Assembly (NCBI RefSeq): GCF_036321535.1
Contig: NC_087436.1
Location: forward strand, 3,968,001 to 4,032,000
Direction of reading: 5' to 3'
Origin: Camelus dromedarius
Lineage: Eukaryota
Length of the DNA: 64,000 nucleotides
In this document: piece by piece, positions 4,176-60,332 of the stretch
How positions within the stretch are numbered: position 1 is the stretch's first letter
Layout: every line of letters begins with the position of its first letter
Notes under the pieces: model-generated
Told to the model about the DNA's origin: nothing
The model's input: the letters and a program-made list of their open reading frames with translations, nothing else
Databases searched by the model: none
Translations under genes and position numbers: made by a program

Positions 4176-4179
4176 TTCA

Positions 4180-21784: not shown

Positions 21785-21998
21785 CTTTGCTGAAGTCCTG
21801 CAGATCCAGCGACAGACTGTAGCCAGGAAGCGTCTGCAGAAGGAGTCGGTAGCAGGCCTTCCCGCCAGGCTCCGGGATGCCAGGGGCCGCGCGCTGCACG
21901 GGGGCCACCCGCTTGAAGAAAGAGGACTTGCAGTGGAAGCTGATCAACTCATAGAGCTCGGAGAGGATGCTGCACTGCTGAATTCTCTCCTAGGAATG
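21785..21998 (-). pseudogene. TRAPPC9: TRAPPC9 pseudo-exon (human exon 8 equivalent), 214 nt
   Basis: cag|CAT TCC TAG GAG AGA ATT...TTC AGC AAA G|gt translates to [70 protein letters not shown]. Recalled human is [72 protein letters not shown]. Stop at 21990-21992; one codon deleted. Confidence 0.95.
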
Positions 21999-24900
21999 CT
22001 GAAGCACAGGGAGAAAAGCAACAAGCATCTGAACGAAACATGTAAGTGAAAAAAGACACTTAAAAAAGGTTTTCCCATAAAACAGAGACCTGATGACACA
22101 GGAAGGAAGAGGAATGCTGACTTCGTGCACTGACCGGACCGGATGCAGAAACGCAGGGAAACAGCGCTGTGCATATGCTCCAGGCCCCCTCTGGGCCCCA
22201 CCTCTCCATGTTCAGCCTGTCCTTTTCCTAGAAAGGCCCGTAGTCCCTGAAACAGAGGAATCTGCTCCCTACACATGAGACGCAGAGAAGGGAAGGAGCA
22301 AAAGAAAGGGAAAGTAAAGGAACAACGTTTCATCTAGACCCTAGGATTTGGACGGGACTTTCACCAAACACAGAACCTCTCAAAGCACAGAGCACACAGT
22401 GAGAGGCTGACAGTGTGACTGCGACTTCTGCTCCTTAAACACCAGCTACCTGCCAGCACACGCTGTGCCCGTTACTGAATCATTACAATCATTTCAGAAA
22501 CTATTACTACCCCGGCTCACAGGCAAGGAAATCTGAAACTCGGGGAGGAATTAGTATCATCCTGGACAAAGTCCCACGACCCAGAAGTGTCAGAGCCTCC
22601 GGCAGACCCTGGACTAAAATGCTCCTCATCACCACGGGCCCTGAGCCTCAGGCTGAGGCCACGTCAGGTCTGCATGGGCCCAGAGCACGAGTCTGTGGGA
22701 CAGGGAATGCTCCCACTCGAAGTGCCAGGCCAAGGCCCTCAGGAGCCTATGAAATGAAACCAAATCCCCAAACTCATTTCCAACCCACTGCCCTGTCCGG
22801 GAGGACTGCTCGGCACATCTGTGCTGTCACCTGTGCACAGGCTGTGAAAGGGGAACAGACAGTGACTTGACGTCCCAGTGGAAGTGGCTTGGAGACCGCT
22901 TCATCACAGGACAGACTCTCCCAGCTTCCAACGTTAACTCTCCATTCCATTTCCAACTGGAAAGTAAGTTTAGACTTGTTTTCCTCTCCTAGAAACAAAG
23001 AGACTGGTAACATCAGCGGGAAACTCAAGACATAGGAAGAGTCTCCTGGTCATTTGGAAGGATAGGCCAGAGAGGGAACAGAGACAGGGATCAGAAAGAC
23101 CCGTGTTCCAGTCCAAAGTCTGCACATCACTCGCTTTGACAGTTTCCTTATTAATACAGGTGAAAAAATCTAATTATGATTGTTGGGAAAATTAATTGAA
23201 ATAACGTATGCCACTAGCATACGTCTAAATTCCTTCATGAGTGTCCCAGAAATGGACGTGATCATGGTTAGTTACTGTCTGCCAAGTCTTGGGTGCTAAG
23301 CTCACATCAGCCAGCCAGAGATGTGCCAGAGAATGCCTCACCAGCCAGCAGCCTTCTCCAACTTGGAAACTCACAGTGTCTGAAGAACAGGCAGTGGTGG
23401 ATGCTTTGGGACACTCTGGAGGTAGCACTCCAGTGATGACTTTAAAAAGCTGGGGAGAATTTAGGGGACCATACAGTTCAAATACAGAAAACACATTCCA
23501 TGTCTACCCACATTCATCTCTAGCCATGATGATTCAGAGAGGAAATACATATTCAAACGTACACCATTTTCCCACATAAGTGTATCAAAACAATTTGGAA
23601 AGAATGTAACTTTCTTCTCTAGATCACACAGCGGGGATTACAAGGTTTGTACTGACAGCCCTACTTGTAAAACATCTGCTAACATAACTGGGTCCACTAT
23701 GAGTCATCATCATTCGAAGAGAAGGATGGAAAAGAACAAAGCCTAGCTAATACGCTCCAGTCTTTTGTTGGGTTATGATGTCACAGAGGAGACGGACAGC
23801 TCAATAAGGAACCACTGTGCCATGATCACGGAGCCGGGGAGCGGGATGGGCGGCAAGATGTGTGACGCAGCCGCAGCTGTGCCCGCGCTTCTAGGCAGGA
23901 ACCCAGTCTCCTCGACAAGGTGTCAAACGCTTGTGCCCACTTCCTCATCACCTGACATGTATTAAAGAGAAATGAAAACCTATAAATGGCCAATATCCTC
24001 GGTGGGCACACCGTCCAAAGAGCAAAGTCACAGTTTGACAACTGGCCATCCCGGTTCCCTGGGATTCATTCTTGGAGAACCTTAAAAACCACTCCTCTGT
24101 CCTCAAGAACTGCTGCCTACTTGTCCTATCTTTGGCTCAGGGATACAGCACGTTCACGTGGACTTTAATGTCGGCACAGATTTGACTGTCTTTCTCCAGG
24201 TTCACTTGTCCATTCTGAAGAGGCCTGAGCTAAGTCCATCCTCCGTAAGATCTATTCCCTCCTGTGACAACTCATCGAGCCTGCAATTAAAAGCCAACTG
24301 AACAGGAGTGTCCTCAGCTAAAAATGTCACCCACCCTTTGCTGTTTTCTTAATCTCCTCTCCTGGCTAATTGCAACAGACTAACACTTCCCTCCACCCAA
24401 CTCCCCAACTATGTCAAACAGAAAGTAAGGTCCATAAAAGAGGAGACAACTCTATAGTCACCTCTGAATTCCTAGCATATACTAATGTCAATAAATTGAA
24501 CTATGATTATGGCTTCTTTCCTTTAAAACCTTTCTGGTTATTTAAATGAGACCTTGGAACAGAGCTGTTTGGGTCTAGTATCTTGATCCAGAAAACTCAG
24601 GAGGCCTTTTTGGGAATGGCTGTTCACTGATTCATTCAAAACCCAACTTCTCATTCCGGGAGGAGCTGTGATTTTCTGCCAGGAGATTGTGGTAACTCTC
24701 ATGACAGAACAGCTTTAAACTAAATCCTTACTTTCGATTTGTTATTTTTCCCTGATTCCAAAAAAATTGACTTTCCTTCATTTCTTGCTTGAGGAATGAT
24801 GTTTTTCTTTCTTTCTAATTCACCCTTTATTAAACAGGCTTCTCAGAATGTGCTTGGCCTTACATAGGATGAGCCATCCAACTCCCAGTGTGAGAGGCCT

Positions 24901-27900
24901 GGGTCTCACCTCCTGCCCTCCTGTCAGGGCAACTAACACGCAGTTCAGGAGCCAACTGGCACCCCAGGGCTTCTAAGGCTCGCATATCTCCCAGAATCCC
25001 TGCTTTCTGGGTTGACTTGGCTTCTGAGGATTCCCCTCACTTTCTTGAAAATTAGCTGTGCAGCTTGAAAGATGAGGAAGGAAGGTTTTATTTCTTAATC
25101 AGCATTTTAAGGAACTTGTGTAATGAAGGTTTTCACGAGTTTCTAGAACCCTCCATTGCCGAGACAGAAAACACAATAGATATTTTCTAAATTTAGGTAT
25201 CATGTGCATTGTTTCTTTGCTTTTGTTTTCTTAACTACTAACAGACATTTTTTAATTAAAAAAAAAATAAGGCCCCAAATAGGATAGAAACTTGAAGGGG
25301 CAAACAAAATTTAAGGACAAAGACAGAAAAATGATAAGTACTCTACAAAGTTAATAGAATACAAACACTATGGATCAGGTCAGCAATTCTCAGTAACAGC
25401 TAGTTGAAACATGACCATGAGGTAAAATGTCTCTCCTGTCAGGAGATGGCCAACAGAAAATAGAATTAAAACAACAAACTAAAATTCTAAGTCTGGCGAG
25501 GTACAGAAGGCTACCAGCTAAATGTGTCTTCTTCTGGAAAAGAGGAAGACTCACCAGCTCTTTTCTGTGGAGCCTGAGCCCAGGGGAGGGCGGTGAAGTG
25601 AGCTCTGTAAGTACCCAATTAGCAAAGTGGGTGATGAATAAAGAGACGTGTGCTTTGATGACAGAGATGATACTACTATTCACTTGTCCGGTAAAGTATG
25701 TCTTCACGTTCAGTGATCAATACCTCGGCGTCCTCAGGGATTGAGATTATAGGAAAATGCACAGCCCGGGCCAAGATCTCCTCTGTGAGCTCATGACATT
25801 GCACTTAGATGTCTCAAGGGCACCTCCAACTCCACCTGCACAGAGCTGACTTCACGGTTCTCCTCCCATGGCCGTCCTGCTCAGTACTCCTGGTTAGGGG
25901 ATAAGGTCGCTCTGCCTCTCCCAGCTCAGGCCCATCACTCACAGATTTGACTGGACCCCTCTTTCAGGGCTCAGATTTCCTCAGTCACCGAGCCCCACCA
26001 CCCACACCTGTCCTACCAGGTATTCACAGGAACTCCCTCAGCACTGACTCTGTGCTGGGGACCACGCTGCACACTGTGTGCATGTTATCTCACTGGATCA
26101 CCACAACAGTCCTGGGAGGTCGGTACATCACTGCTTCAATTGTTTAGATAAATTGTTTCACTTCCTTGAGTGCGTCATCCAAAGTGACACGGCTACTGAG
26201 CCACAAAACTGGGACTGAAAACCACTTGAAAATTGAACACTGCTACACCTCGCAGCCACCCTACTGTGATTCATCACATCACCTCTTGCCGAGCCTACTG
26301 AATGTTTGCAAGCATTCTACAAACACAAAAGTGATCTACGAGAGCACCCCACTCCCCTACTTAAAATCTGTCAATGACGGTCCACTGTCCTTCAGAGAAA
26401 GACCCACCGGGCCTGAGCACAGCCCAACGGCCCGGCATCCTCGTTCCCTGCGCGGCCGCGCCGCCTCACCCACCAGGCAGCTCTACACGTGCCGTGTCCA
26501 GGACAGGGATGCTGACTCCGTACAACCAAGGGCACGTCTCACTCGAACAATGATCACCCTCTTCAGTGGTCACCCTCTTCAATGCTGACTCTCAGAAAAA
26601 TGTTTTCTCAGGATGAATCAATATCTTTTTCCTTACAACTTCCAGTCATTGATAATGAGCTCCCCCCAAAAGAGAGAACACTTAATAGTCAGTCTCCTTA
26701 TCTGTAAAGTGGGAATAACAAGGAATTATGTGAGGTTTTCAGAGAAATAAAATTCATGTGAGTCTGAGGGACAATTCCCAACATACAGTAAGCACTCAAT
26801 ATGGGCTTACTTAGTATTAATAAGAATATGTTGCATTCCAGCAACCTTAACTCAATGTTTTATGGCTTTATCCAACAGACTACTGACAAACTGTTGGACG
26901 AACCCCTTTGAGCAGATCAGCACAAGCGTACTGGGAGAGGTAAGTGCTGACTCCAGTTACAGCTGCAGCCACCCAGCACTACGGGGCGGGGGCAGTTTGC
27001 TCAAACTCTTACATGTTGTTTGAGCATTTAGTTGTCGTTATTGAATAAAGACAGGTGTTCTTTAGTCAAAGCTCCTGAAACATAAATCTTCAAAAATAGA
27101 TACAAATTAGGTTTCAAGTACAACATTCTCACTAGAAATTATTTGAAAATGATAGTCTTAGCTCCTCTGCACATCAAAAGGTCATGTTCTTAATGTATCT
27201 GACTATATACACTGAAAGGATTGTTTAAAAGAAATTAAGATGAAGCCATCCTAAATAAGCTCTCAGTATCATCTGCACAAAGCCCCACCCAAGGGTCTCA
27301 TTTCTCACTTCCACATAGGTGTTGAGGTAGCTTAACCTGGGTCTTGGTTTCTTATGACACAGGGGAGGGAAGAGTTGTGGATAGATTTATGTAGCAAATA
27401 TAAACCTAGTGTATTTGATGTGTAGGAATCCTAGAAATAAACAAATTGATATATAGTCCCACCCTTAAGAAGCTCAGCCTTTCCATTTACAACAGCATTA
27501 AAAATAAAATGGGAGATACATTTAACAAAAATTTACAAGATTTGTACATTGAACATTTTGAAGTATCACGGAAAAAAAAATTTTAAAAGATCTACATATA
27601 TGGAAGACATCCCATGTTCATGGAATGGTAGACAATATTGTTAAAAATGTTAAGACTCCCCAAAATGATCTACAAATTCAGTGGAATCCCTATCAAAATT
27701 CCAGCTAACTTCTTTGCAAAAATTGAAAAACTGATCCCAAAATTCATATGGAAGTGCAAGGGATCCAGGTCAGCCAAAACAATCTTGAAAAAGAAGAACA
27801 AAGTTGGAGGACTCACTTTAAAGGTTACTACAAATCTATAGTACTCAAGTCAGTGTGGTACTGGCATAAGTTTGGATACATAAATCTATGAGGCACAATA

Positions 27901-32579: not shown

Positions 32580-34872
32580 ACAGGACTGGGTTGTGAAGGG
32601 AGCTCTGAGGCCCTGGCTAAGGGACAGAAGCAGCCCCAAGGGCTCGAATTGGCGGGCAGCCTCTCTCCCAGGAGGGGCCTGGGTCTGCCCGGTTCTCTGA
32701 GTTTCTTTGTTGTGCTGACTCCCCAGCCACAGAGCGTTCTCCCTAGGCCTGTCCCCACAAAACCCTTCTCTCCAAAATACAAGCACATCATGTCACAATC
32801 CTCTTGTTCAATCAGGAAATGTTCAGCCCACTTTTTCCTTCCCCAGTAAAGAACCTAACTGTCCTCCTTCCCATCCCACCACTTCTTTCTTTGTGAGAAC
32901 TCTGCACTCTCCACACACCATGATGAACGCAGGTGCCTTGCTGGCTGGGACATAGATGTTTCAGTCTTACACAGCCTGCGTCATTTCACATTCCCCTTTC
33001 TACCTTAAAAAGCCTTTCCTGAGTCTCCCACCCCTCTGATTCTGAACTTCACAAAGTGCTGAGTTTACGGTCACTGTGTGCATACATCCCAGGTTTTGAG
33101 TATGTTTCCTTTGCAAGATCTTCATTAAGGAGCTGCATCAAGAAGTTTAAAGAGGCTATTCTTACATCTGAGAAGATGAGCCTGCATAAAATTTAAATGG
33201 CTTTGAATAGACTGTTAACCGGGGACAGAGATGTCGCAGGTCCTAGTCAACAGTGTCATGAGGCAAAACGTTCTTCAAAGGCTCAGAGTGGCTTCTGAAC
33301 GTGGAGTCGGCAGGGAGGAGGTGACAGGCAGTGAGTGGGGTGTGTGAAACAGCTTACGCTCCCCCAGCTGGGGAAGAATTGGATTTTTTTCTAGTTTTCC
33401 AATTTCTTACTACCTTTTTCTTTTATTGTCACATACCATTTCATATGAATTAAGAAAATCAATGTCAGTCATTTGGGCCACTTGGGAGAAGCTACACAAT
33501 GCCATTCACAAGTCTGGGAAATGACAGCCACACCAGTTTGGTTGAAAGACCAGTGGGGGTATTTCCAAGGTGATCACGGGAATGCAGCAAACTTCCCAGC
33601 TTCAATCACCTCATCTCAAAGGTGGGGCCAATAAAACTACCGAGCAAAATGCGTGATGATTATGGCCGACATCTGTTTACTAGGTAAGTGACCGTGACAG
33701 CTGCCACTTAATGGGGAATGAGAATGATGAATGAGGCCCCGTCTACCTGGTCACACGTGCCCTGCCTTCCTGCCTTGGTGCAGCAGCAGAGTTTGTTTAG
33801 CTGAGATGAACGACCCCAGAGCAGCCCCGACGGGAAAGCTCCCAGCTCTGCATGGCGAGGCGTGTTCCTTTCCTTCTCAGAGCTGATCACAGTTTGCAGT
33901 CATCTGTTTTTATGTTTATCACTTTTGTAACTGCCTCCCCCCCGGAGTTTTGCTCAAGCAGCACAGGGCCAGGTGTGTCTTGCTGCCTGCTGGATATTCT
34001 GGGCTGGGAGACAGCCGACCTCACATCTGGCTCAGGTGCTGGCTGAGGCCAGAAGGCCCAGGGGCCCATGCTGAACCGAGGCCCCTGCACCCAAAATTAT
34101 GGTCTGAATTTGGGAAAACTACACAGTCTTCTTTACCCTGAGATTCCTCATCTGTCCATGAAAATAACTGCCCATGGCACACAGATTTACCAAGATTAAA
34201 GGAAATCACCAAATTCACAACCTATTCAAGGGGCTACCAGTGCATCCTCAACAGACACATGCTGCCTTTACGGCTCTGACACACGCCAAGCGGGGCGGCC
34301 GCACACAGTGAACACTGCTAAGAGCCAGTGTGTTAAGTGCTTCATGTGTGCTATAATACTCTTTACAACTTACAACTATCCCAGGTAGAAATGAATATTA
34401 TCATGCCCATTTCATAGATTCACCAACAGGTTAGGAGTGGTTACATTCTAGTCCAAGGCCCTATGGTGAGGAAATGGCGATTTAAACCTGAATCTGGGCC
34501 CAGGCCTGGGCTCCATCTCTCTCTCATCCACCTGACAACTTGCCTATGAAATCCACCTGTCCAATACACGTTTGCAGCCGGCCAGCTCTTAAATACAATG
34601 TGTTCCACCGTTTGTCAATGTTCATTAATCACCATAAACTGTTATCAGAAACCACTAAAGAAAAGAAAGGTGGGCTTATGTCCCTGCCCACAAAGAAAAG
34701 GAATTCTGCCTTGCCTTCTCCTGTAACGTGCAGAAACCCTTCCCTACACCACCAAATCCTTTTGTATGCTTCCTCCATGTTTATGTTTGCACACGGCTTA
34801 TTAAATTAGAAGGTACCTGAAGTAATTGCATCTCGGTTGCTTTCCAAGTTTGCATATTATCCATAATCAGTC

Positions 34873-35363
34873 TGTGAACGAAAATACTACAGTGTGAATG
34901 AAAATACTACAACAATGTCAGTAAACAAAGAATGCTGAAACCAAGTCATCAGTGGCTGCCACCACCCCCCAGAGAGGACAGCCATGAAGCCCAGCCTCTG
35001 CAGCCACTCACAATGGTGCCCTCTGAGCAGACTCAGAATAAGAAAGGACAGGATACTTGCCCTAGATAGCTAGGTGCTTGTCTAAAGAATGAATTCAGTG
35101 AGTCCAAATGTTTGCTTCCTTCCATACATGGAAAAGCACTAAATTCTTGAACTTGAGATACCTGGCTTTCTTTAGATAACAAGCAATCTTTTATTGTTCC
35201 AACTTCCTGGTCTTTGTTGTAAAGCTCCTATATATCCTAGTTCCTCCTCAAACTCTTGGGAACAGTCCCTCAGAGTGATCTGAGAGGCTGTCATCCCGAC
35301 TCGAGTCCTCCCGTCAAATAAAACATAACACTTAACTTTTAGGCTGCACATGTATTTCAGTCA
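34873..35363 (+). mobile_element. 5' LTR
   Basis: TG...CA termini, TATA-like ctatatat at ~35228 and AATAAA at ~35317. About 90% identical to 41604-42090 by eye. The 3' end may extend about 3 nt further. Confidence 0.93.
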
Positions 35364-35370
35364 AAAGTTT

Positions 35371-35388
35371 TGGGCACCAAAAAGGGAC
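35371..35388 (+). promoter_or_regulatory. Degenerate primer-binding site, tentatively tRNA-Arg
   Basis: tgggcaccaaaaagggac matches 14/18 to recalled Arg PBS TGGCGACCACGAAGGGAC and 13/18 to Lys3, so the tRNA is uncertain. Confidence 0.6.
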
Positions 35389-37307
35389 CCAGAGCAGACT
35401 TCTCTCCAACTGAACTCTCCGAGGAACTGGAGCCTTGGTACCAGCAGTTGCACTTTGTGCCCATCTGCCTCCTCGGGGAGTCCAGATGAATTTGGATGAG
35501 TCTCTCCTGGTTCTCGGATCTCACATATTGGTTGATGATCCTGAGTTTTATTTGGCGGTGTATCCAGGTACCTGGCCCTCCAGTTGAAAGAGACTGGGAG
35601 GAATTACCCACCCAGTGGAGGCATACTGGGTGGGGCCTGGTTGAAAGATAACAGGAAACACCCACCTTGAGGAGACGTCCAAAATGGGGCTGGTGGAAAC
35701 ATACCAGGAAAATACTCACCCAGTGGAGACGTCCTGAGTGGGTCCAAGTTGAAAGACGCTGGGTTCAGGACTGAGTGGTTAGATAAGAGGCTGGTCTAAT
35801 GTTGTCCTCAATTTGGTTACCTCCATTGAATTTTTCGGAATAAAAGTATAACTCTTATGAGGAACATTTCAACTCCAAAAATGGGACCCTCCTCCTGGCT
35901 GATAACAGCTTTCTCGGGTGACGGAGAAACTTTCAGGAATGGTAGAGGCAAAGACTTCATGCCACAGTGTTGTCCCTGTGGGAAATCTTACTAGCAATTT
36001 TATTCTGAGAACCCGACCTTACAATGGGGAATAGAACTTTCAAAAAAAAAAAAAAAAAACAAACAAACACACAACAGAAAAGAAAAAGAAATGACAGATT
36101 GCCAGCCTCCAACTAATACACTAGCCAGGTTTATATATGTTCAAAACTTACAACATTAATTAGGAATTAGAAAAAAAAACTCACTCTGAAAGTAACTAAC
36201 CAGGCCTGATAAAATATTTTTTGGAATTCTGAACTTATAAGAACAAAATCCCCTTTAGGGGGAACTTGGATTTCTCTTCCTATGTCCTTGAAATGTAAAC
36301 GTTTTATCTTTCTCTGGGTGTTTTATCTTTGTGTATGTATGTATATATGTGTTTTTTTTTTTTTTTAAACGAAACCTTGGTCTCTGCCATACAAAAGGTA
36401 CAAGTATTGTGTACATATGGTGGCCACGCAAATAAATTGGGATTCTCAACAATCCTTTGTACCAATTTTCAGATATTTTGCCATCTTAACCGTTGTTGCA
36501 TCAGCCTGGACCACAAAGGCCTTTAGCTTTTGGAAAGTAAACTTTTGAATTTTATTTAAGCAACACCCCCACTCTCATGTGGAAAAGCCTCTTCATCTTA
36601 TTCATTTAAAATCACTATATATATATATATAAATTGATGGCCATATGATGGATCCTTAGTTTGGGAAAACTTTTAAATTGGTGAAAGTTGAAAGAGCTCT
36701 CATTATAAACAGCTCTTTTATTGGTACCTATTAAAATCAAGTTTAAAGGTAGAAAATTATATCTAATGGTTAACCTAAGAACTTAGTTAAAAAAAAAAAA
36801 AACTGGCTTGAAAAGCTACATTTGTGTTTTTCCTTTCCGATCAATGGTTTTAGAGATGCTAATAAATACTTAGAATAATTAATGTTAATTAGGTTGAATA
36901 ACTGGAAAAAGGATTGTAAAATTGTTGAGAAAAACAAAAGATAAGGGGCTTATCCCAAATGGATATATATTTTTATATGTTAATTTTGAATGAGATAAAT
37001 AAAATGGACATTTTTGGATTTAGATACAAGGTTTTGATACTACACTACATAAAGTAAAAAAAAAAAAAAGGGCCAAAGAGATCACCTACTGCCCCCCAAC
37101 ATTAAAGTTCAAACAAGTCCGCTTTAACACAGTTTAAAATATATGTATTTATAGAGCTTAAAAAAATACATATTTATAGACTGAAATACTTGATCAATAA
37201 TTGGGACAAGAGACCAATTAATCAAATTGAAAATTGAGAAGGGCCTAAGCTCTTTGGCTCAAACTTGGGGATCCCAGAGAATTTTCTATATAATTAGATA
37301 CAATGCA

Positions 37308-37344
<37 letters not shown>

Positions 37345-40300
37345 TTCTGGCACTCCTTCTAGAAATAGGAATTACTGATTAAACCTAATAAATATAAAAA
37401 TTAAAGGTACAAGATTTAATAAAATTGAGATAAAATTTTGTAAAATTGGTATATTTGAATGGGCTTTATATAAAACTTTTGCTTAATTATATTGTGGGAT
37501 AGATATATTTCAATGGAAAAACACTTCCCCTTCTTGGTATTATAAGGCTGAGCACATATCTGTCCCTTAGAAAGTATTAATTGAACAAAATAAAGGAAAC
37601 CAATAGAGTTACATGAGCCGTCCAGTATAACATAAAATTAAAAACTAATATTCAGTGGCTAATAAACAATAAAATAAGAGGTTTACCCTGGGTTTAACTT
37701 ATAACTCAAGGAAAAGAGACCTTACTAAATACATTATGCAAACTTTGGAAGACATGATAAAGTAAATCTTAAAGTTTTAAAACATGGAATTCTTTGTTTA
37801 CAGCTATTCTCACTGATACAAAAAAACCAATTAAGTAGATACAATTGCACCTGGGGGACAGAGCAGTTCTCTGGGGAACTGGAAGCGTGTGTCTTTGTCT
37901 TGCAGATCAGAAATATAAATACAGCAAACAGTGACCTAGGACTGAGCCTAATTAGCTCAATGAGATAATACTTAAGGCCAAGAAATTTTTGGCATTTTAG
38001 AACTCAGAACTCTGACGCGTCCTTCAGCATTTGTCAAGAATTCTTAAGTGTCTGTTTCATAAATAGTAAGCCTTAGTGATTTGAGCAAGCAAATTCAGCA
38101 TACTCCAACTATTATTATACCTAACTTATAAGTAAGTTTTAAAGTGAACCTATGAGATCTCTAGCTTTTGTCTGTTTATAAGCCTGCGTACACATTATAG
38201 ATGTGAGATATTTCTACAGCTAAAAAAAAAAAAAAAATCAAAGTCAAAGAGCTCTGCTTAATTGACGTAAAAAAATAAGAGCTTACAAATTAAGTATTTT
38301 TAAAATAAAAACTGACCAAATTGACTTTCAGCGTCACACGAACAGGAAAATATTCAATATTAAGATTATATTTGATATTGTTTAGTTTAAGTATGTTCTA
38401 ATTAATATAGAAATCTTTAAAGTCATCAATATTAAGTATAATACCATTACTGTACCTAGGTTTAATGAAAGTCAAATAAGATCCTGTTATATCTGTTGCA
38501 GATTTGCCAAGAAAAAAGATAGTAATGTGGTGTAGTAAAATTTTAAGTAAATTAAATGCAAATGAGGTGAGAGCTTTGGGTAAATTTTTAAAATATATTA
38601 TTAAAATGTATGCTTAAGATAATCTCTAAATGTTTGGGATCTTTAAATTCTAGAGTTGTGCTACATTAAGTTAAATGATAGGATTTTATTAAATAGCTAT
38701 GACATTTTCAGATAAAATAAGATTGAAATATGAATTATTTAACATTTAACTTACCCTTACAGAGAAACTAAAGGTGTTTAGAAATATTAATAAATGGTTG
38801 GTGCTACACTGAAATAATCTCTATTATTAAGGGTATTATCTCAGTATCCTAGGAAAGTAAGATAAATGTGTAAAGGAAGATATAAGAATGTAATTATATT
38901 TTGTTAATAAAAAATAGTGACTTTCTTCTGAAGCTGGTTACTTCTGAATGGAAGCGAAAATAAAGGACACACTAATGTGAGTATAGAAAGCTGTGGAAGG
39001 TTTGTGGAAGAGGAACCCTGAGGAAAGAGTTTTGTACGTGGTCAGAATTGGCTAAATTCAGAATCAACTTGGGCAAAGTAAATGAATCTTAGAAGTAATC
39101 TGGTAGAAGACTAGATTTGATTTTCTCTCTGTTAAGAGGAGAAAATTTTCTAAAAATGTTAATCCACCTTCAGTAACAAATTGTAAAGCTTCTTATACCA
39201 CATAACTGATCTGTTCTGCTTTTACCTTTGACGTACTTTCTTGTTAATGAAAAAGAACTACTTTACAGTGATCTATATGTTTATCTGACCAAGTGTTCTG
39301 AAAACTTTTAACAAGCTCCCCAAATATCAATTTCTAATTGAAGTTCTTTTAATCTCCAGTTAAGTTTGGGGTGCTACAGAGGGCCCCTGAAACATCCCAA
39401 AGAGAGATTTTAAACTAATAAGTTTCATTTGGCATGTTAAATAACATGGTATTGTCAAATGAATAATAGATCTTCCTAGGTTATATTGTATAAGAAAATA
39501 TTATTAATATACATATTCTAGAAATTATATGGACTCCCTAAAATTCTGGCATATCTGAAAAGTTACCAGTCATAATTCTGGTTATAGTGACCAGCTTTCT
39601 TTATCGATTATAGTGTAACGGTGTTTAACCATGCTTTTAAATCACTTGTCATTTATAGACAGTTAATTGTTTCCTTCTGATGATTTTGCAAAATGCTTTC
39701 TCTTCAAGGAGATTTATTGATTTCAAATAAATTTCAAACTATAGCACTGAACTAAACTGGGTAAGAAATTTTAAAGGTCTAATGAAAACTCTGATTAAAA
39801 GAATTAGTTACATGGGACTGAGTAAACTGGTGAATATGGTTATACTTTTTGATTTTGTCTGAAATACTACTGGCTTTTAACCTGTTTCCCAGACATAAAG
39901 AAACTCTTCTCCTTAAGCTAGTTATGATTCACAGAAATTTGATAAATTATACCTATGTAAGCAGACTTGGAACAGTAATCTTTTCTCTCTGTCTGATCCC
40001 TCAAGAGACTAAAAACTCTAAGGTCCCCAGTGGCTCTATCAGACAAATTAGGAAGATCATCTCCTAACAGATATAGCAATCTCAAGGTATTTTAAGGATT
40101 TTAAAGAGAAAAGAATTTACCTATATCTGTAAGGCAGAAATCCATGACAAGCCCTTGACGAGGCTTTCCGGGCCTTAGAAAACCTTATTAGCATTCTACC
40201 CTGAGAGTCCTTATTAAAAGTTCCAACACAGCCAATTTAAAAAAGCCTATATAATCAAATAATCAGACTTAGCTTGTAAACAAATTAATCTTGATTTGAC

Positions 40301-40523
40301 TATATTTGAGAAAACTGAGGGTAACTTTAGAGAGAAAAAAAATTATATTTTACTGGATATTAATTTCTAGTTTTGTTAATTGAGGTCTATATTTACTAAG
40401 ACACTTCCTAGATCATTCCTTGCTGTTATGTCACATTGCTGTAAAGGTTAATTGAATTATGAAAAGAATAATCTAGGTTTGTTTCTGAGGCTCAATAATC
40501 TATCCTTGGGTAAAGTTCCAATG

Positions 40524-40672
40524 CCCCATGACCTGCAGCCAGGGGATTATAAATACTGGAGCAGGCATGACTTAAAGAACTGTCTCCAACCTGAACGGAA
40601 GGACCCTTTACCAGGTACTCTTAACTAGACCATACACACCAAAGCTGAAGGAAATGGACTTTCAGATTCATT
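40524..40672 (+). pseudogene. Retroviral integrase C-terminal (GPY/F) remnant
   Basis: PHDLQPGDYKYWSRHDLKNCLQPERKDP-(frameshift)-YQVLLTRPYTPKLKEMDFQIH resembles the class I ERV motif H.LQPGD.V..K...L.P.WKGPYQVLLT...K....WIH. Confidence 0.8.
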
Positions 40673-41603
40673 TCCTATCAGAAACAGCCCCTGCAGTGCA
40701 CTGGCCTATAGAGCACTGCTCACCTTAAAACAATGCCCAAATGGAGAAAAAGCTACCAGGCCAGGATGAGAAGAAGACAACATCTGAAGACAAGATCTGA
40801 AGACAACAACTGCAGACCCAAGACATCGGACCAGGCCTGTATGCCAATTACTTTGATAATTTCTCCTACCTTTGATTATGAACTACTCCAATTGTTAAGT
40901 TTATGGTAAATTACCTATGTCTAGTACTTCTGTGTTACCTTGGTGGGTTTCCCTACTCCAAGGCTCTAACTAGATAGCCCTCAGAAACGTTATTCTAAAA
41001 AGAAATTATAGTTCTGTTTAGGCCACTGTTGATCTTACAAGGTGGGAGTCCTCACCTGGCCAATTAATACCTGCTGTGACCCTGACCATAAATATGAAAT
41101 TTCTCATAAGATCACTCAAACTCAATCGGAAACACAAGCAAAATTTTAACCGAAAAATATAACTTCTCGACTATTAAATTCTTACTCATGACTTTATTAA
41201 CGTTACTAGCTTTATTACTTATATCCTGTCTATATAATAAAATTGTTGTCTGTTACATTTCCCAATGTGTAACTAGGCCTACAAGATTGATGATGGCTAA
41301 ACATCTTGAAGAAATAGATAAAATTTATAACTCTGTGTAAAATAATTGTAATAGTGTGATTCTAGTTATGGGAATGAGCAACGAAGGGTAAACAATTCCT
41401 GGATCATAATAGACTAGTAAGACAGGCGATCCAGAGAACTTTTAGTATCAACAGGGCCTGATAAAAAAAAACTAACACCTTGAATGGCAGCTCAGAAGAT
41501 TCTTCACCTGAACTAGGAATGAGCCGTCCTAGCACCGTGGGACAAAATTGGTCATGAAATGTCTCTCAAAATATTGGTCGAATTTAGGACCAAGGGGGAG
41601 CAC

Positions 41604-42090
41604 TGTGAATGAAAGTACTACAATGTGAATGAAAATACTGCAACCATGTCACTAACAAAGAATGCTGAAACCAAGTCATCAGTGGCTGCTGCAACACCCC
41701 AGCGAGGACAGACCTGCAGCCCAGCCTCTCAGCCACTCACATTGGTGCCCTCTGAGTGGACTCAGAATAAGAAAGGACAGGATAATTGCCCTAGATAGCT
41801 AGGTGCTTGTTGAAGTATGAATTCAGTGAGTCCAAATGTTTGCTTCCTCCCATACATAGAAAACCACTAAATAATTGAACTTGAGATACCTGGATTTCTT
41901 TAGATAACAAGCAATCTTTTATTGTTCCAACCACCTGGTCTTTGTTGTAAAGCTCCTATATATCCTAGCTCCTCCCATACCTCTTGGGAGCAGTCCCTCA
42001 GACTGATCTGAGAGGCTGTCATCTTGGCTCGAGTCCTCCTGCCAAATGAAACACAACTCTTAATTTTAGGCTGAACGTTTATTTCAATCA
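41604..42090 (+). mobile_element. 3' LTR
   Basis: Follows the PPT, is a direct repeat of 34873-35363, and ends tca|agtc. Confidence 0.93.
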
Positions 42091-45320: not shown

Positions 45321-45439
45321 CTGTCAAGGTGAATGTAAACCACATTCTGGAGAAATTCGGAAGCTTCCAGGCTCCGCTTCTGGATGTCAAGGACACGGAC
45401 AGCTTTGAAGCATGCTTCTGAGTCACCAGCATTCTTACA
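45321..45439 (-). pseudogene. TRAPPC9: TRAPPC9 pseudo-exon (human exon 7 equivalent), 119 nt
   Basis: ctgcag|TGT AAG AAT...CAC CTT GAC AG|gtgag translates to [38 protein letters not shown]. Recalled human is [43 protein letters not shown] 6-bp deletion and a 1-bp frameshift are present. Confidence 0.94.
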
Positions 45440-52140: not shown

Positions 52141-52261
52141 CTGCTGTAACAGGGCATGGCCCCCTTCTATTTGTCAGTTGTGTCTTCAGGGCTGAGGCAG
52201 TTCTGAGCACGGCCAGTGTCAGTGCTGGTGTCTGGATGGATGCCACTGGAGGTGAGGGCAC
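52141..52261 (-). pseudogene. TRAPPC9: TRAPPC9 pseudo-exon (human exon 6 equivalent), 121 nt
   Basis: ttgcag|GT GCC CTC ACC...TAC AGC AG|gt translates to [38 protein letters not shown]. Recalled human is [40 protein letters not shown]. Stop at 52167-52169; 1 nt short at the 3' end. Confidence 0.94.
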
Positions 52262-54711
52262 CTGCAAGCTGAGAGGAAAAACAGAAATCATCCTCTGCTT
52301 TTTCTGTCTTGTTTCTTTGTTACTGTAAAAGAGAGGCATAAATAAGATAAACTGTGAATCTTCCCTACTGAAATTTCAGTAATGAAACCGTTCTTAAAAC
52401 CTTCACAGCTTATATTCTGCTTATAACTGTCTTTTCAACAAAGCATCATATTTATTAAATGTTAATTAACTCAACTCCCTGTTGAAACCTTCTATTAAAG
52501 AACATGAAATGCACTACGTGAAAGCACCACGCCTGCAGTGACTACCTTATCTGCCTTGATGGCAGTGCAGTCAGCACTCACCATCCCGTGGCCCTGAGCT
52601 CCTAATGCTGCTAAGAGAGCATGCTGCCGCCTCTGATGGAGAGAAACTGTGAAAACATTCTCTGAAATCTACAGCACTGACAAAACATAACTGACAAATC
52701 CCAGGCTCCTTGGAGGCTGTCAATTTCTGTTTCTGTCCAAACACCGTCAATGAGCAGAACCACCCCATTCCGAGCCATGGGACTCACGTGGGAAGCAGTT
52801 TTGGATAAATTTCCATGTATAGAATGTAACCAACTATACATAGAACTCTGACAAAATAAAAGATGAAATACTCTGATTTTGGAAGACACTCAAAATATTC
52901 TCCTAAGCCTTAGTAGCTGGAAAGGCTGGGCTTCTCCTCATCCACTTATTCATTTCACATCCAGTGAGAATCTCCCACAAACCCTGTTTCCCTGTGTCTG
53001 CTGGGAGCCTCAGGCACACTCTTGCTGTCGATCTTATAAGTCACAGCAATCTTATAAGTCTTAAATGTCTCACGCCTGCAACCCTCACACAAGCTCACCA
53101 ACTAGCCATAATGTCTGTACTTGGCCCCATTTTCTCACCTGTTTATTTGGTATCTGTTCTTCTGTAAGCTGCCTAATATGCTTCTTGGAACAAGTCAGAA
53201 GAATGAGTGGGTAGATAAATGGATAGATGGACAGGTGAGAGATGGGCAGACAAACAGAGAGACTCCAAGAAAAGGGGAAAGAAAAGGGGAAAGAAAATTT
53301 CCTATGCAGAACCCTCTTCTAGTCAGGGAAGAAAACCACCACGGAGAAGAGTGAAGAGGCAGATGGCTTAGGGCTGTTTCCTGGATTCCATGAAAAGTCA
53401 CACCAAGAGATGAGAGGGTAGAACTATAAATAATAAAAGAAAAAAAGCATGCATGCTTGAAAAATATATCTACAGTATGTACTTTATAAAGGATAGATTC
53501 AAATCATCAGGGCCCAATAACACAATCCTTGGGTATTTACAGAAGTGAGAATCCCATCTCCAAACCACAAGGCATCCCTTCGGAGCACTAAGAGTCTACA
53601 CGGGACGGTCATAAAGCCGTCACCGCAAAAGTTATGCTATCCTGCGCTTACGAGGAACGAGCAGCTGTGCTCGGGCTGCCCAGGTGCGCCATTTATACCC
53701 CACAGCACCTCTACGGGGGGGGGACGCCTAGCGAGCCCGTCTCTACAGGACAGGAAACAAGTCCGGGAGAGGCTAAGCTGACCTAACATTTCTCCATCTC
53801 ACAGGACTGGTCACTCCAGAGCAGGACTCGAACTCGGACCCACGTTTGTAACCATGGTACTAACGTGCTCTGTGTGCTTTTTGTGTGTATAATACATTTG
53901 TTTCTGGCATGAAAGAATATTTAATAAATGATCGGTTGTCTTGTCTATCTCATTAGCTCACAATCTTTATATTTTTGAATTGTACTCTTTTCCCCTGGAG
54001 AAAGGAATGGAAAGAACAGGGGTCAGAATGAGGTGGGGCTCCATTCTTTATATGGTACCTCATCTCATCCAAGTCCCCAACCAGGGAGAAGGAGCAAATG
54101 TTGTCTTCAATTTTAAAGAGAGTGCTCCACTGATGGTGACTTATTCAACTGCAAAACCAAGGCTGGGGGCAGGGACATGCAGCAACCAGAGCTGTATCAC
54201 CTGTAGGAAGGCGGGAAAAGCTCATGGGAGGGCTCAGGGGGTCAGCCTGATTTAACTTCAATCGATAAAAGAATAACACACTCTAAAAATACTAGCATTC
54301 AATGGATTTGTTCTTTCTTGTCATTTAGCAAGTTTCCACAGCGCACATGTAAGATTATCGTGAACCAGTGAAAAGAAGAGTCTACAGATAGGGAAAATCA
54401 ATGCCACAGGCAGGCTGAAAGCCAGGCTGGAGGAAAGGAAGGGAAAGGGCATCGTTATGAATAGGGGAAAGACTGGGAAAAAGACATCATCACAAAGACC
54501 CTCAAGCATCATTCAACAATCATATTATCATTCATTCAAGAGAGAGTTACTGTGGTCTTATTTTGTGCAAGATTGTACAGAGGGCAAAGCAAGAGTGCAG
54601 CATCCATGGTGGCAGCAAGTGGCGGGGCTCAAGTAAACTTCTGATCCCGGTACCTGGCACACTTGTCCTCAGTATAAAGGCAAAGAAAAAAAAGTAAAAT
54701 AATGCTCTGTA

Positions 54712-54995
54712 AACTCAAAGCATTGTTGAAAAAAATTAAAGAAGACCTAAATACCTGGACAGACACACCACGCACATTCCTGGATCAGAAGACAGCGCTC
54801 TTGGAATGGCAGTGCTCCCCAGAGCGATCCATACATACAACGTGGTTTCGATCACAATCCCAGCTGGCTCCACTGCAGAAACTGACTAGCTGCTGCTACA
54901 ATTCATATGGGAATTCGAGGGTCTCAGTAACCAAATTGTGCTTGAAAAAGAACAACGTGAGAGGACTTGTAATACTCAATTTCAAACCTTACAAC
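54712..54995 (+). mobile_element. L1 ORF2 fragment
   Basis: Frameshifted remnants of KALLKKIKEDLNTW... and LKKNNVRGLVILNFKPY. Confidence 0.8.
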
Positions 54996-56404
54996 TGTAT
55001 CTCCAGGTGTGGTTAGAGGCCATTTTTAAGTTATTATTGTGTTTATCCTTATTTTCTAAATTCTCTACAATGAAAATAACTGTTACAATAAGAAAAATAA
55101 AAAGTAAGGTATCTTTTAAAACATGCACACCAATTCATTCATTGGGAAAATAATATTTTAACTATAAAGAGGTAAACAAATATCTAGTGAAAAAGGACTA
55201 CTTAAAACAACAGTGCATTTACATTTTTCATAAATTGAAAACTGAAAAGTACAAACACATCAAGTTTCTAGGGAGACCGATGCAACATATTAATAGTTAT
55301 TTTCAAAAATTCTAATTCAACAATGAAAACTCAAGAAAGGGAAAATCGTGATTGACAGCCAACTGCAAACACATGGAGAGCAAAGGCCTAGAAATCACAG
55401 TGCCTTTAACTCTGCTACTAACTCAATAGGAGAGGAAATTCCTCCCTGAGGGGAGAGTGGAATCCCATGCATAAGACAGGATACACAGTACAAACTGCAC
55501 TAGAATCAGGGGTGATTTTCTTAGAATTCTAAGGTTACAACATTGCTGAAAAACTATAAAAACACTGACAGACAGATTAAAACACACAGTCATATATATT
55601 ATATAGAAACATATGAAGTCTGCTCCCATGTTGCATAGAAATACAAACATATTTGTTCATTTATGGGCACTGATTACTTTATCCCAGGTAGAATATTTCA
55701 ACTACAACAAATAATCAATATTACACACCTTTTGTCAAATCTAGTTGATAAGTTACTCTGCTATGTAAACATAATGTGTCTAAGATAGATCTAAAATTAG
55801 TGAAAAAGATCTTTGTATGCTTCCTTGAACTCTTCTCAAAATTCCAAGCTTAATTTTAAAATACCTCTGAGCAGTATTTCTATATGATCTTTTCCCTCGT
55901 GAAATGAACAACACAGTCTGTTGTCAAAATTATGTCCTTACAATTATTCACGAGCACCGTATCCTAACAAAACTGCTGGACAAAAAGGCACTATCCAGAC
56001 ACTGTGACAAAACAAATGAAACACAAGGATGACAGTGACCCTATTCTGGAGGGCTTATAATGTGTTCCAACACCGGGGTTTTTATTTGATTGGTTTGATT
56101 GGTTAGAAAAATAAAATCACTCAAGTACTTTCTTTTTGAGCATTCTGTAAGTCATGACTGTTTTCAGTGTCATGAGCAGGAAAGACTTAAGCAAGACTTG
56201 ATTAGGTCAAATAGCAACAATCATCACTGGAGAGTGAGTAATAAAGAAGTAAACTGATAGCAATGCTTCTGCCTACATGAGACCTAAAATAAACCTACAC
56301 TGATCTCTGCAAGGAAAATGAGGAGTTGAGGTCCCCAATGAGAAAACAAACTAACAAGAAATCAAAAAAGGAAAGACTTTTTCCATAACGATTCCAGGAA
56401 GGAG

Positions 56405-56590
56405 TGGAGCATGGTGGTGAAGAGCACAGATGCTGGGGACAAACATGAGGGTCTGAACTCCCACAGCACTGGGTAGCTGTGACACTGATATGTCAGTGAA
56501 ATTTTCTGCATCCCAGTCTCCTATCCATAGACTGGGGACAACAACAGCACCCGTCTCCTAGAACAGTCCTAAGAATTAAGTTATTTTATA
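56405..56590 (+). mobile_element. MIR SINE remnant
   Basis: gcatggtggtgaagagcacag...tagctgtgacact...cagtctcctatccatagactgggg. Confidence 0.7.
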
Positions 56591-56624
56591 TATAAAAATT
56601 TAAATAAAATACCTCAGATTATAA

Positions 56625-57665
56625 ATATTACCCCAAAACACAAGGAACAAAGAAAACAGTGATAAATTGGAATTCATCAAAATGTAAAACATTTCTTCAA
56701 AGGACACCATCCAGAAAGTGAAAAAACAACAAACAGGAGAAAATTTTTTCAAATCATTTATCTGATTAGGAATTTTTATCTTCAAATAAAAAAAAAACCT
56801 CCTATAACTCAACAATAAAAAGGGAACTCAATTAAAAAGTGAATAAAGGATCTGAAAATGTATTTTTCAAAGAAAATATACAAATGGCCAATAAGCACAA
56901 TCAAACGATGTTTAATATCATTAGCTGTAAAGGAAATCAAGTCAAAACCACTAGGAGAAACCGCTTCACACTCACTACAATAGGTTATAATAAAAAAAAA
57001 AAAGAGTAACAAGCACTAATGAGGACACAGAGGAAGCGGAGCTCGCAGCCCTTGCTGGTGAGAACGTAACGCTGTGTGACCACTTTGGAAAACAGCCTGG
57101 CAGGTCCTCAGAGAGTTGAACATTTGGTTTATGAATGACCCAGCCTTTCTGCTCTCTGGGCACACACGTAAGAGAACTGAAAACCAATGTCCACATAAAA
57201 ACTCCTACAGGAATATTCACGGCGCCATTACTCATCACAGCCAAAAAGCAGAAACAACACAAATGACTATCACCTGATGAATGGGGTAAACAGTGGGGCC
57301 CAGCCATACAGTGGAATATTATTCAGGAATAGCAAAGCATAGAGTACTGACCCAGGCAACACCGTGGACAAACATTTAAAACGTTACTCAGTGTGAAAGA
57401 AGTCAGTCACAATAGACGGTTTCATTTACATGAAATGACTCATTTTACATGAAATGTCCAACAGAGGCAAATCCACAGAGAGAGAACAGTGGCTTCCTGG
57501 GGCTGGGGGAGGATGGGGAAGATGGGAATGACTGCTTGTGAATACGGGGCTTCCTGTTGGGGGATGAAAATGTTTTAAGATTGACTGCAATGCACAATTA
57601 TGGGCATAGAGTAAAAACCGCTGTACATTTTAATGGGTGAATTGTATTAAAACTGTTAAGAAAAA
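56625..57665 (+). mobile_element. L1 (L1MB-like) 3' fragment
   Basis: Contains gataaattggaattcatcaaaat, caaatggccaataagcaca and catacagtggaatattattcag, and ends in an A-rich tail. Confidence 0.9.
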
Positions 57666-60305
57666 AAGCACCTAGGGCCAGTACTTTCAAATAGTAGATG
57701 CAAATTGCTAACTTTTATTACAGGAAGAAGAAACTGCCCTCAGCATGAAAGCAGGAGATCATCATGTGGGTAAACTGAAATTGGACAAGAGCATTTCACT
57801 TGAAACAGTTGCTGAGTGTACACGAAATACTCAGAAATAGGAAAATCAGCTTGACATCACGAAGAAGAATTCTGCTTCAAATGAAGATCAAGGATTTAGC
57901 AAGCCCAGCTGCTAGAAATGACCAGAGAAGATACTTTGTTCTTAGAACAAGCACCAGAGCCAACAAGGAAATGGTGGTGAGGAACGCAGGCAGCCGAAAA
58001 TCTGGAACAGTTTGCTACAAATAATTTCTCCACTGAAAATTCAAAAATAAAATGAAAGTGACACAATGCTGTGCTGGTCTCACCCGAATGGGCTTCCTCC
58101 GGTGCTCAACAGTTCTGTAACCCCGAATGAGAGACTCAGGAGAATCAGCATGTTTCCTGGCAGTCCCCAAGTGACTGCCCACCAGCACACTGACCACCAT
58201 CACATCTGCCAGGGTTGTATTGCAGAGAAGAGACCAACTTCTAAAAGGCATAGGAAATGTTGACAAGGGAAGAAAAGGCTGCAGTAAGTTCTGGGACAGA
58301 GGCCCTGTGAGCAGAGGCCAGAAGGCTGCAGGTGAACTGGAGTTGCCCTGGGGCAGGAAGGGACCATGAAGTAGCAGATCTCAATTCTCTACTCTCTCTC
58401 CCTTGGGTAGGAGAGATAAACCTGCATCCTTCTCACCTGGAACTGTGGGTTCTGGCTTGCAGAAGTCTTACCTACAGTAAATGATTACTCAAGACTCTGT
58501 GGAAATAGCCCAGAAATCGATAGGGAGTAGGGAGCCAACTCCACGATCCTATCAAATGCTACCATATTTATTGTGTATAATCAAAGGAAAAAGTCATTAA
58601 CAGTTGTGTGATAGTAAGCAGGAACTTGGGGAAAGAAGGGATGAGAAAGAGATTGTAGAATCCACCATGAGTACAAAGTCTTCGTGTATCTTTAGGGAAG
58701 TCATGGGGTGTGGGGAATAAGATATATTCTTTAGATATGTGAATTACAAAGCAGACCACCAGACCAGCTAGGTCCTTGTTTTGGGGATAATAGACTATCT
58801 AACTGCACACAAGCCCAGCGTTTATACCTGAGGGCCTGGGTCATTGCTTTGCAATTAGCAGAGTGCTATCTAAAACCTCAACTATGCAAGCAAAGCATTG
58901 CCTCTGCTTTTTAAGGCAAGGAGACAGGAGTGAGGATGCACAGACGCTTGCTTGCAAAGCAGTTACTAAGCTTTTTTTTTCTCCTTAAAGTTGACAGACG
59001 GCTGGGGTCTGTTAAAATTTGTTAACCCAATCATGGGCTCCCACATGGAACCATTATGGAGGACACCCTTGGGTGACAAATCCTGGCTCTGGGCCTTTTC
59101 CTGCCAGCTTCAGCCACTCTAGCAGGGTCTAGGCAGATCCCTGAATAACGATCCTACAGAACCACCCACACTCTTAACTCCTGGTGCCTGAAACTTAATT
59201 TTAGCTCTACACAACTTAACGTAGAAAACTTTCAGAAATAAAAGATATTATATTCATTTTATATCTCATCATATTACTGATTTTTCTGATAGCTCTAAGC
59301 TGCTGCTTCTTGGTAAACAACTAATTCTGCAGGTGAATTCCATACTTTCTTTGGGCATAACTAGCCAGTTTGGTCTCGCTGAATTCTATTGGTCAAATAT
59401 CGATACACTTAATTGATTTCATTGTTCATCAGTTTCAGCTGGGAGTAGAGGGAGTGTCACTTTGTTCCTCAGCCCACCCTCAACTCTTTATCGTCAGCAA
59501 ATCAGGCTTCTGGAAAACAAAAAGAAAGAATTTGTTTCCCTTCTACAGTTTCAACAAACACAACAGGATATATCAGCCTGGAGAGAGAATTCAACACAAA
59601 TGTTAAAACAAAACTCTATAAACCTGAAGCAACTCCATCTCTGAATCATGATACACAATGACATGAGAGTTAAGTGTGTCAGGCACAAAGCACGGGTGAG
59701 CCTTACCACCTGACTTCTGTTCTTCAAAGGAGGGAAGGTTTTCCTATTTTTTATTATCACTCTGTCATTGTTTCTGATTAAGCCAAAAACTAGTGTATGA
59801 AATAATTAAGCACTGCAATAACAGATTTTTGTTGTATCAATTACAGAAGGCATTCAGAGGGGATAGGAAAACCCACCTCTGTAAAAAATGCAAAATATCT
59901 TCCCCTGTTAAGAACACGTATACAAAATGCAACAGAGAATTCAAACTCTTGTGGAGAGGAGCAAAAGCCACAGAAACAAAGCAAAGTCATTACTATGAGT
60001 CAATTCAAAATTCACTGGACAATCATGCTCAATGCATTCAATGAAATTTTAAGGCTCACTGCAAACCATTCACTTAATGATCTGCAGGCTAGAGGAACAA
60101 TTTCTCTCTTTAACAGACAACAGTAATCAATAGGGTGCCCCACCAAACAAGGACCAAAGAACAATCAGGTTTTTAACAGTTCTGATAAATCAGCATGTTC
60201 TAAAGATCAAAATCCAAAAATTTTAAACATTCATTCACACCACAATGAAACAAGCACTTAAAAAAAACAAAAAACTCAAAGAAACTAAGCACATAGATCA
60301 TGTAC

Positions 60306-60332
60306 TTGGATCAATGAGAACTTCATGTACCA
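60306..60332 (-). pseudogene. TRAPPC9: TRAPPC9 27-nt micro-exon (human exon 5 equivalent)
   Basis: ttctttcttccag|TG GTA CAT GAA GTT CTC ATT GAT CCA A|gtacat gives VHEVLIDP vs recalled human AQEVLIDP. Length, phase 1-1 and position relative to the other exons all fit. Confidence 0.88.

Follow-up and report, generated by a model that had tools for sequence, protein, structure and literature searches.

A dead, intron-bearing copy of part of TRAPPC9 at a dromedary satellite edge, and the widespread camelid family to which it belongs

In primates, interchromosomal segmental duplications of pericentromeric regions carry unprocessed gene fragments that were seeded by a founder, spread from chromosome to chromosome, and lie at the boundary of satellite DNA. 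The usual identity cut-off for recent segmental duplications is 90%. In camelids, whose karyotype is known as stable, pseudogene-rich repetitive blocks of NEK10-like, FMN2-like, ATF5 and ABHD17A-like sequences have been described in the alpaca (PMC13751797); the main text of that article contains no match for "trapp", and we found no paper describing a TRAPPC9-like camelid family. Full-length TRAPPC9/NIBP (Trs120) proteins carry the Pfam PF08626 and PF26251-series domains. We analysed a stretch of 64,000 nucleotides of the dromedary genome (hereafter the window), in which an initial annotation had proposed a dead TRAPPC9 duplicate. Four exons of the gene were located:

60306 to 60332, minus strand: copy of the TRAPPC9 micro-exon (exon A), 27 nt, AG/GT ends, 6 of 7 codons as in the parent micro-exon
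52141 to 52261, minus strand: copy of TRAPPC9 exon B, 121 nt, 61-66% identity by tblastn, E about 1e-10
45321 to 45439, minus strand: copy of TRAPPC9 exon C, 119 nt, 74-77% identity by tblastn, E about 1e-10
21785 to 21998, minus strand: copy of TRAPPC9 exon D, 214 nt, 72-75% identity over 69 aa by tblastn, the last parent exon present

The shortness of exon A precludes tblastn, and its call is based on the match at 6 of 7 residues, its position and its splice ends; the lengths of exons B, C and D were judged against reference mammalian TRAPPC9 proteins, from which 122, 126 and 217 nt are expected. The order A-B-C-D is that of the parent, and the introns measure 8.0, 6.7 and 23.3 kb; the presence of three long introns rules out a processed pseudogene (retrocopy). 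The splice dinucleotides, first described as mostly intact, are kept, with AG at all four acceptors and GT at all four donors, that of exon D being weak. The identity of about 70% claimed for the largest exon also holds: over its 69 aa, exon D is 72.5% identical to the human protein (P0117) and 75.4% to that of pig (P0066), with E about 1e-24 within the window. For the four exons combined, the whale TRAPPC9 protein shows 38 differences over 148 codons (74% amino acid identity). Downstream of D the next parent exon has no match in the window at E up to 10; exon D alone matches neither Pfam nor PDB, and no tRNA gene was found in the window.

Six lesions interrupt or shorten these exons. Exon B contains a TAG stop at 52167-52169 and has lost 1 base at its end; in exon C, 6 bases are missing at about 45416-45424, close to its start, and 1 from its end; exon D has lost 3 bases (one codon) at its start and contains a TAG stop at 21990-21992. 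The two nonsense codons and two frameshifts initially reported are present in this sequence. The two in-frame deletions stand in D, with its codon, and need refinement in C: of 72 camelid models, 27 show a loss of 2 bases there and 4, exclusively Bactrian, lack a further 4 bases, so that the 6 missing bases are best read as two events. Normal splicing of the window copy would meet the stop of exon B, a net frameshift and the stop at the start of exon D, and no TRAPPC9 protein would be expected from it. A kept exon-intron structure, combined with two stops, two 1-base losses and nothing past exon D, fits an unprocessed pseudogene. Besides, the window copy is altered at 10 of 48 vertebrate-invariant sites, which, together with the altered sites among the copies (below) and as a proxy taken at the protein level only, indicates a loss of purifying selection.

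The DNA beyond exon D contains stretches shared with other copies and, farther on, the satellite array:

1 to 4173, no strand: homogeneous 249-bp satellite with a higher-order repeat (TRF score 6694, 16.8 copies), running past the window edge
4174 to 5395, no strand: degenerate monomers of the 249-bp satellite, old array edge (blastn with the monomer, 62-68% identity)
9158 to 9277, minus strand: non-parent stretch common to an alpaca copy (P0019, 75% over 40 aa, E 2e-15)
19534 to 19657, minus strand: non-parent stretch that other copies' models take as their final exon (12 models match)

The satellite adjoining the window copy has a homogeneous core, identical to itself at 1.00 for a shift of 2490 and at 0.90 for a shift of 249, and a degenerate edge; exon D lies within 17 kb of it. 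No CENP-B core (the motif being taken from general knowledge) occurs in the 249-bp satellite. Coding stretches of the models of other copies match the window from 9158 to 53425, so the co-duplicated block exceeds the four exons; it is longer than 1 kb, includes introns and recurs at other loci. This bears out the proposal of a partial, dead, satellite-adjacent segmental duplicate with introns. The stretch at 9158-9277 marks the nearest approach of the shared block to the satellite. Between 5400 and 20500, none of 117 stop-to-stop frames of at least 48 aa matched a Pfam family, and no second gene fragment such as POFUT2 was found, a weak test considering that exon D itself is Pfam-negative.

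The intron between exons C and D contains an element useful for dating:

34873 to 42090, plus strand: provirus-like element, LTRs at 34873-35363 and 41604-42090, 4-base target duplication
34793 to 34886, minus strand: cryptic exon at the edge of the provirus, which 6 of the 72 models of other copies include

The two LTRs differ by 44 substitutions over 488 sites (K2P 0.096), which places the insertion roughly 19-24 My ago at an assumed rate, on which, as for all dates given here, the figure depends; the insertion would predate the camel/alpaca split. One alpaca model and five Bactrian ones splice to the acceptor that the edge of the provirus creates, and the provirus appears common to alpaca and Bactrian copies.

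The initial annotation guessed that several copies might exist at other satellite edges; the family goes far beyond this guess. The alpaca has TRAPPC9-like models on at least 25 scaffolds, which were distinguished by length; 15 measure 20 Mb or more, and some may be unplaced. By this tally the copies occupy several chromosomes; they are found also in three Camelus species, C. dromedarius, C. bactrianus and C. ferus. Of the 53 listed matches of exon D, 31 are short camelid models with identities of 71-93%; none of these matches is a short copy named for a different mammal. The model nearest to exon D of the window is P0002 (92% protein identity), while the median among copies is 83%. That assembly or consensus artefacts lie behind the many copies or the window lesions is highly improbable. 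Satellite edges are hard to assemble, and of the words sampled from 21400-23400 the DNA runs contain no more than 0.36-0.39 (0.69 in the best run); on the other hand the copies differ from one another to the extent just given and appear in the annotations of four species, three of the six lesions recur in models from other assemblies (the other three, namely the two TAG stops and the 1-base loss of exon C at 45321, recur in no other model and are private to the window copy), and the perfect identity of the satellite over the 2490-base shift suggests accurate bases. Part of 21400-23400 is contained in 20 of 24 rows of sequencing runs, 7 of them recorded as RNA, three of which, from one study, reach 0.55-0.60 of the sampled words; as RNA runs may contain the sequence as DNA, these matches are no evidence of expression.

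The possibility that the window holds the decayed native TRAPPC9 locus, lost as a gene in camelids and its remains later spread, is extremely improbable. It would agree with the lack of an intact camelid protein among those listed: full-length camelid TRAPPC9 accounts for 0/120 and 0/120 of the proteins and for 0/35 and 0/122 of the cluster members listed, but these lists cover only a small fraction of clusters that have 100-515 members. Against it, the gene ends after exon D with the satellite within the distance given above, and none of the 72 models reaches the next parent exon or any later one. Part of an earlier exon is present in 23 of the 72.

Did the window copy decay where it lies, as first supposed, or did decay come first? 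At conserved sites the window copy carries 21 amino acid changes common to other camelid copies versus 7 private ones, which argues against a copy taken from the parent and decayed in place, and for decay followed by spread. Six changes at vertebrate-invariant sites are kept in 36-40 of 40 distinct copy sequences, and in the tree the 41 camelid rows are separated from 10 parents by a branch supported at 100/99, of about 0.21 changes per site. These shared changes and this branch suggest that most of the decay occurred once, in the founder, before the spread. The tree has 66 columns, and since its starred branches require no more than a single change of the alpaca label, it cannot place several copies before the camel/alpaca split. 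Among copies, 37 of the 48 invariant sites are altered (a count that includes the frameshifted tail of one model), and substitutions per site amount to 1.44 at invariant versus 2.0 at variable sites (p=0.12); the constraint pattern of the parent is lost in the copies. Indels are mosaic: an 18-base loss is common to P0029 and to P0031, P0054 and P0245, which differ at the exon start. These mosaic indels, the limit of the tree, the missing CENP-B core and the zero counts of full-length camelid TRAPPC9 (a weak blank, given the coverage of the lists) speak against the preferred explanation.

The changes of the founder lean from AT to GC (15:4), and the later ones, tallied in exon D only, number 15:26. 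Tested under symmetric mutation rates, the lean lacks significance (61 of 400 simulations), and it is a post hoc hint of biased gene conversion in the founder; if confirmed on DNA, the lean would offer a clean case of conversion-driven pseudogene decay.

Altogether, it is very probable that the window copy is dead and belongs to a camelid block that comprises introns and some of the exons from the front half of TRAPPC9; this block likely was duplicated a single time and decayed before exchange among regions next to satellites carried it to many chromosomes. A single founder duplication would have occurred in the camelid stem lineage, an early phase may have been GC-biased, and the spread might be due to ectopic recombination or conversion close to centromeres or short arms. 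The window copy is likely junk propagated by duplication near centromeres, an element of an ordinary kind whose breadth of spread is unusual.

A more elaborate history would make the family a camelid core duplicon, whose founder evolved fast under GC-biased conversion and, about 20 My ago, seeded the edges of satellites on most chromosomes, an alpaca subfamily having then lost the stop and gained a putative new protein of 157 residues built from two old exons and intron sequence; we consider it very unlikely. Very unlikely too is a gene family of recent origin, comparable to the core duplicons of primates, in which the window copy is dead and an alpaca subfamily encodes a putative protein of about 157 aa through a cryptic donor after exon B joined to exon D. 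Some data point in this direction: a 13-member cluster of models of about 157 aa spans many alpaca scaffolds, the cryptic B to D junction occurs in 22 of 72 models, many models are listed as isoforms, and in 25 a Trp stands at the position of the window TAG and the parental Tyr, a stop later lost being perhaps the simplest reading. However, protein databases list open-frame copies only, so that openness is built in; the branches of the subfamily (0-0.04) leave little time for a frame to close, substitutions disregard the invariant sites of the parent, and the start of the frame varies between models. Nor is the window copy itself of the type of the protein-coding duplicon families (NPIP-like), since its frame is closed.

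On the reading of a dead copy spread by duplication, camelids with their stable karyotype carry an old duplication family on many scaffolds in both tribes, and it could provide a dated marker of satellite-edge exchange. The annotations present dozens of these decayed copies as TRAPPC9-like proteins, and such copies may mislead gene annotation and trait mapping. TRAPPC9 and POFUT2 are unlinked in human. TRAPPC9 is a candidate at dromedary chromosome 14, 31.1-31.4 Mb, in two association studies, one of which names POFUT2 alongside it (PMC10357240, PMC8027435); these candidates may be dead copies. The initial warning that reads of such a copy could be mis-mapped stands in part: mis-mapping onto the parent is doubtful because about 11% of replacement sites diverge, and confusion among copies, as well as mis-naming, seems likelier.

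With the parent gene the window copy shares four ordered exons with introns and the 74% amino acid identity to whale, but the parent encodes about 1140 residues, whereas the copy retains only about 150, with stops and frameshifts and no exon beyond D. Its closest relatives are the NCBI models named "trafficking protein particle complex subunit 9-like" (Vicugna pacos, Camelus dromedarius, C. bactrianus, C. ferus), which have the same exons, derived residues and cryptic exons; they are labelled protein-coding, whereas the window copy has a stop within their frame. These models are automatic annotations, not a described family. The alpaca blocks likewise consist of fragmented gene pieces that occur in many copies within repeat-rich camelid regions and are attributed to segmental duplication followed by decay; however, they cluster locally on chromosomes 11, 17 and 36, and camels are reported to lack them or to carry them in reduced form (PMC13751797), unlike the TRAPPC9-like family with its many scaffolds in both tribes. 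With the primate pericentromeric duplications, the camelid copies share an intron-bearing fragment, a probable founder seeding followed by spread between chromosomes, and, in the window copy, a satellite boundary; they are much older and more diverged from their parent than the usual 90% identity cut-off for recent duplications implies, and their pericentromeric position is putative.

The TRAPPC9 copy of the window is a real, ordinary unprocessed pseudogene, one of a camelid family of duplications whose spread is unusually wide and which is automatically annotated but without description in the literature searched. The initial annotation had read here a dead, intron-containing duplicate, and its description of exons and lesions was correct in every count: exon order, splice dinucleotides, nonsense codons, frameshifts, in-frame deletions and identity of the largest exon. 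The four exon copies, named A to D, stand in parent order when compared with stored mammalian TRAPPC9 proteins:

1-4173: tandem array of a 249-bp satellite
14232-14290: short GC-rich 19-bp tandem repeat, 3.1 copies, in the part of the shared block that separates the satellite from exon D
21785-21998, minus strand: exon copy D, flanked by AG and GT, one codon missing
34873-42090, plus strand: provirus-like element between exons C and D, with both LTRs (K2P distance 0.096) and a 4-base target duplication
45321-45439, minus strand: exon copy C, flanked by AG and GT, lacking its last base and six bases close to its start
52141-52261, minus strand: exon copy B, flanked by AG and GT, final base missing relative to mammalian proteins
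60306-60332, minus strand: exon copy A, flanked by AG and GT

Over 69 residues exon D shows 72.5% identity with the human TRAPPC9 protein and 75.4% with that of pig; across all four exons 38 of 148 codons differ from a whale protein, about 0.11 per replacement site. Searched with five full-length mammalian proteins (E up to 10), the window gave no credible match to other TRAPPC9 exons. TAG stops occur at 52167-52169 (exon B) and 21990-21992 (exon D), so that A-B-C-D splicing meets a stop in B and a net shift of eight bases ahead of D, whose third codon is a stop with no in-frame ATG afterwards in the exon. The TAG at 21990-21992, read on the minus strand, also makes a new AG behind a pyrimidine run, nine bases beyond the normal acceptor; splicing there would bypass this stop in frame. 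Part of the region occurs in RNA sequencing runs, which does not amount to evidence of expression.

Across the copies 37 of 48 invariant sites are substituted, with 1.44 changes per invariant site against 2.0 per variable site (p=0.12; count and p value include the frameshifted tail of one model). The window copy itself is changed at 10 of 48 invariant versus 7 of 18 variable sites (p=0.20). On these sequence counts the parent's pattern of constraint is lost. According to predicted models, an alpaca subfamily retains a 157-residue frame through a cryptic donor past B spliced to D; this frame is weak evidence of function, given the youth of the subfamily and a database restricted to open copies. 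A codon that is TAG in the window and Tyr in the parent reads Trp in this subfamily, most simply explained as a stop later lost.

The guess that several copies exist was supported, insofar as many related models were found on many scaffolds. Exon D matched 53 proteins. Short camelid models (71-93% identity) account for 31 of these and come from Vicugna pacos, Camelus dromedarius, C. bactrianus and C. ferus, the other 22 being fish, frog or unnamed proteins; cluster look-ups gave additional camelid models. At least 25 alpaca scaffolds of distinct length bear models, a lower bound which counts open-frame models only, takes the longest contig per protein only and excludes one model without exon D. 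Fifteen of them are 20 Mb or more, although some of these may be unplaced, and for all 15 the accessions seen come from a single XP_0727/0728 series. Ten further places of the window, from 9158 to 53425, match non-TRAPPC9 coding stretches of the models, so that whole blocks were copied, introns and flanks included; the copied block extends to less than 4 kb from where the satellite ends. None of the 72 models scored reaches the next parent exon, and 23 contain part of an earlier one. This kinship marks the DNA as camelid. In the Bactrian models P0024, P0025 and P0244, a single model has two different exon C copies consecutively, which points to tandem units fused in one predicted transcript. 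No full-length camelid TRAPPC9 was present among 120 of 713 matches listed, among 120 of 714, or among 35 and 122 cluster members, a small part of large clusters.

Each of six changes at sites invariant in 166 vertebrate proteins is present in 36-40 of the 40 distinct sequences compared among the copies. Of the window changes at conserved sites that could be scored against other copies, 21 recur in those copies and 7 are private. In the exon D tree a branch of about 0.21 (support 100/99) sets 41 camelid rows on one side; its inner forks are mostly without resolution, and by itself it gives no proof that several copies predate the alpaca/camel split. Taken together, these data indicate that most decay occurred once, before the spread; the proposal of a copy decaying in place was thus not borne out. 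Among lesions, 68 of 72 models also lack the codon missing from exon D. The six bases lost from exon C resolve into two steps, one of 2 bases that 27 models share and another of 4 bases present in 4 models; the complete form is common only to Bactrian models (4/72), which hints weakly at Camelus. That B lost its final base is implied by two models which join it to C in frame. No model has either stop or the end-of-C loss, as expected since models require open frames. The B-end loss and the 2-base loss in C cancel, the parent frame being regained after about six codons (P0014, P0016), and the window's extra 4-base loss disrupts it again (52141, 45416-45439).

The LTRs would date the provirus-like element to 19-24 My, given assumed mutation rates of 2.0-2.5e-9. 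Its left edge makes a splice acceptor on which one alpaca model and five Bactrian models rely; as this acceptor is common to both, the insertion is likely older than the split of the two tribes, placed at 11-25 My in PMC13751797.

Family-shared changes in exons B, C and D, with parent codons inferred by shortest path and not from a camelid parent, comprise 15 AT-to-GC and 4 GC-to-AT. The changes that other copies gained later lean the opposite way, with 15 and 26 (Fisher p=0.005), and those private to the window number 1 and 4. In a post hoc simulation of neutral decay at assumed rates, the window's overall AT-to-GC share (20/30) was reached in 0 of 400 runs when rates were AT-biased and a CpG effect was included, in 8 of 400 when this effect was dropped and in 61 of 400 under symmetric rates. 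This lean offers a lead towards GC-biased gene conversion acting on the founder duplicate which, if true, would also make it look older.

Very probably, then, the front part of TRAPPC9 was duplicated a single time in the camelid stem lineage, this founder decayed before multiplying, and ectopic exchange would then have carried the block between satellite-adjacent regions. The setting is presumably centromeric. Anatomy, multiplicity, common origin and lost constraint are demonstrated, whereas dates, exchange mechanism and centromeric setting are proposals. Four monomer types make up the 249-bp satellite in a varying higher-order pattern (window 1-5395), monomers of 62-68% likeness extending it to about 5395. 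The types diverge by 5-12%, yet the array repeats exactly at a 2490-base shift. The satellite contains no CENP-B core; its unit length is absent from the main text of PMC13751797, an analysis which left centromeric satellites out.

Judged by title and abstract start, the TRAPPC9 papers found on camel, or on pseudogene and duplication together, do not describe this family, and none was found on alpaca; a term search of the main text of the camelid CNV preprint 10.1101/2025.08.28.672513 gave 0 matches. TRAPPC9 is reported as a candidate on dromedary chromosome 14, at 31.08 and 31.37 Mb (PMC10357240, PMC8027435), accompanied by POFUT2 in Table 2 of PMC10357240; we infer that these candidates may be dead copies. 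Several dromedary association signals lie inside the first 100 kb of chromosomes. Both kinds of signal may stem from duplicated or collapsed sequence. Camel-human chromosome homology is not given in the text available of PMC6371769 and PMC4061535. The main text of PMC13751797 has 0 matches to 'trapp', and its supplements could list further blocks; it describes, in alpaca, pseudogene-rich blocks of NEK10, FMN2, ATF5 and others, which it reports as absent or reduced in camels.
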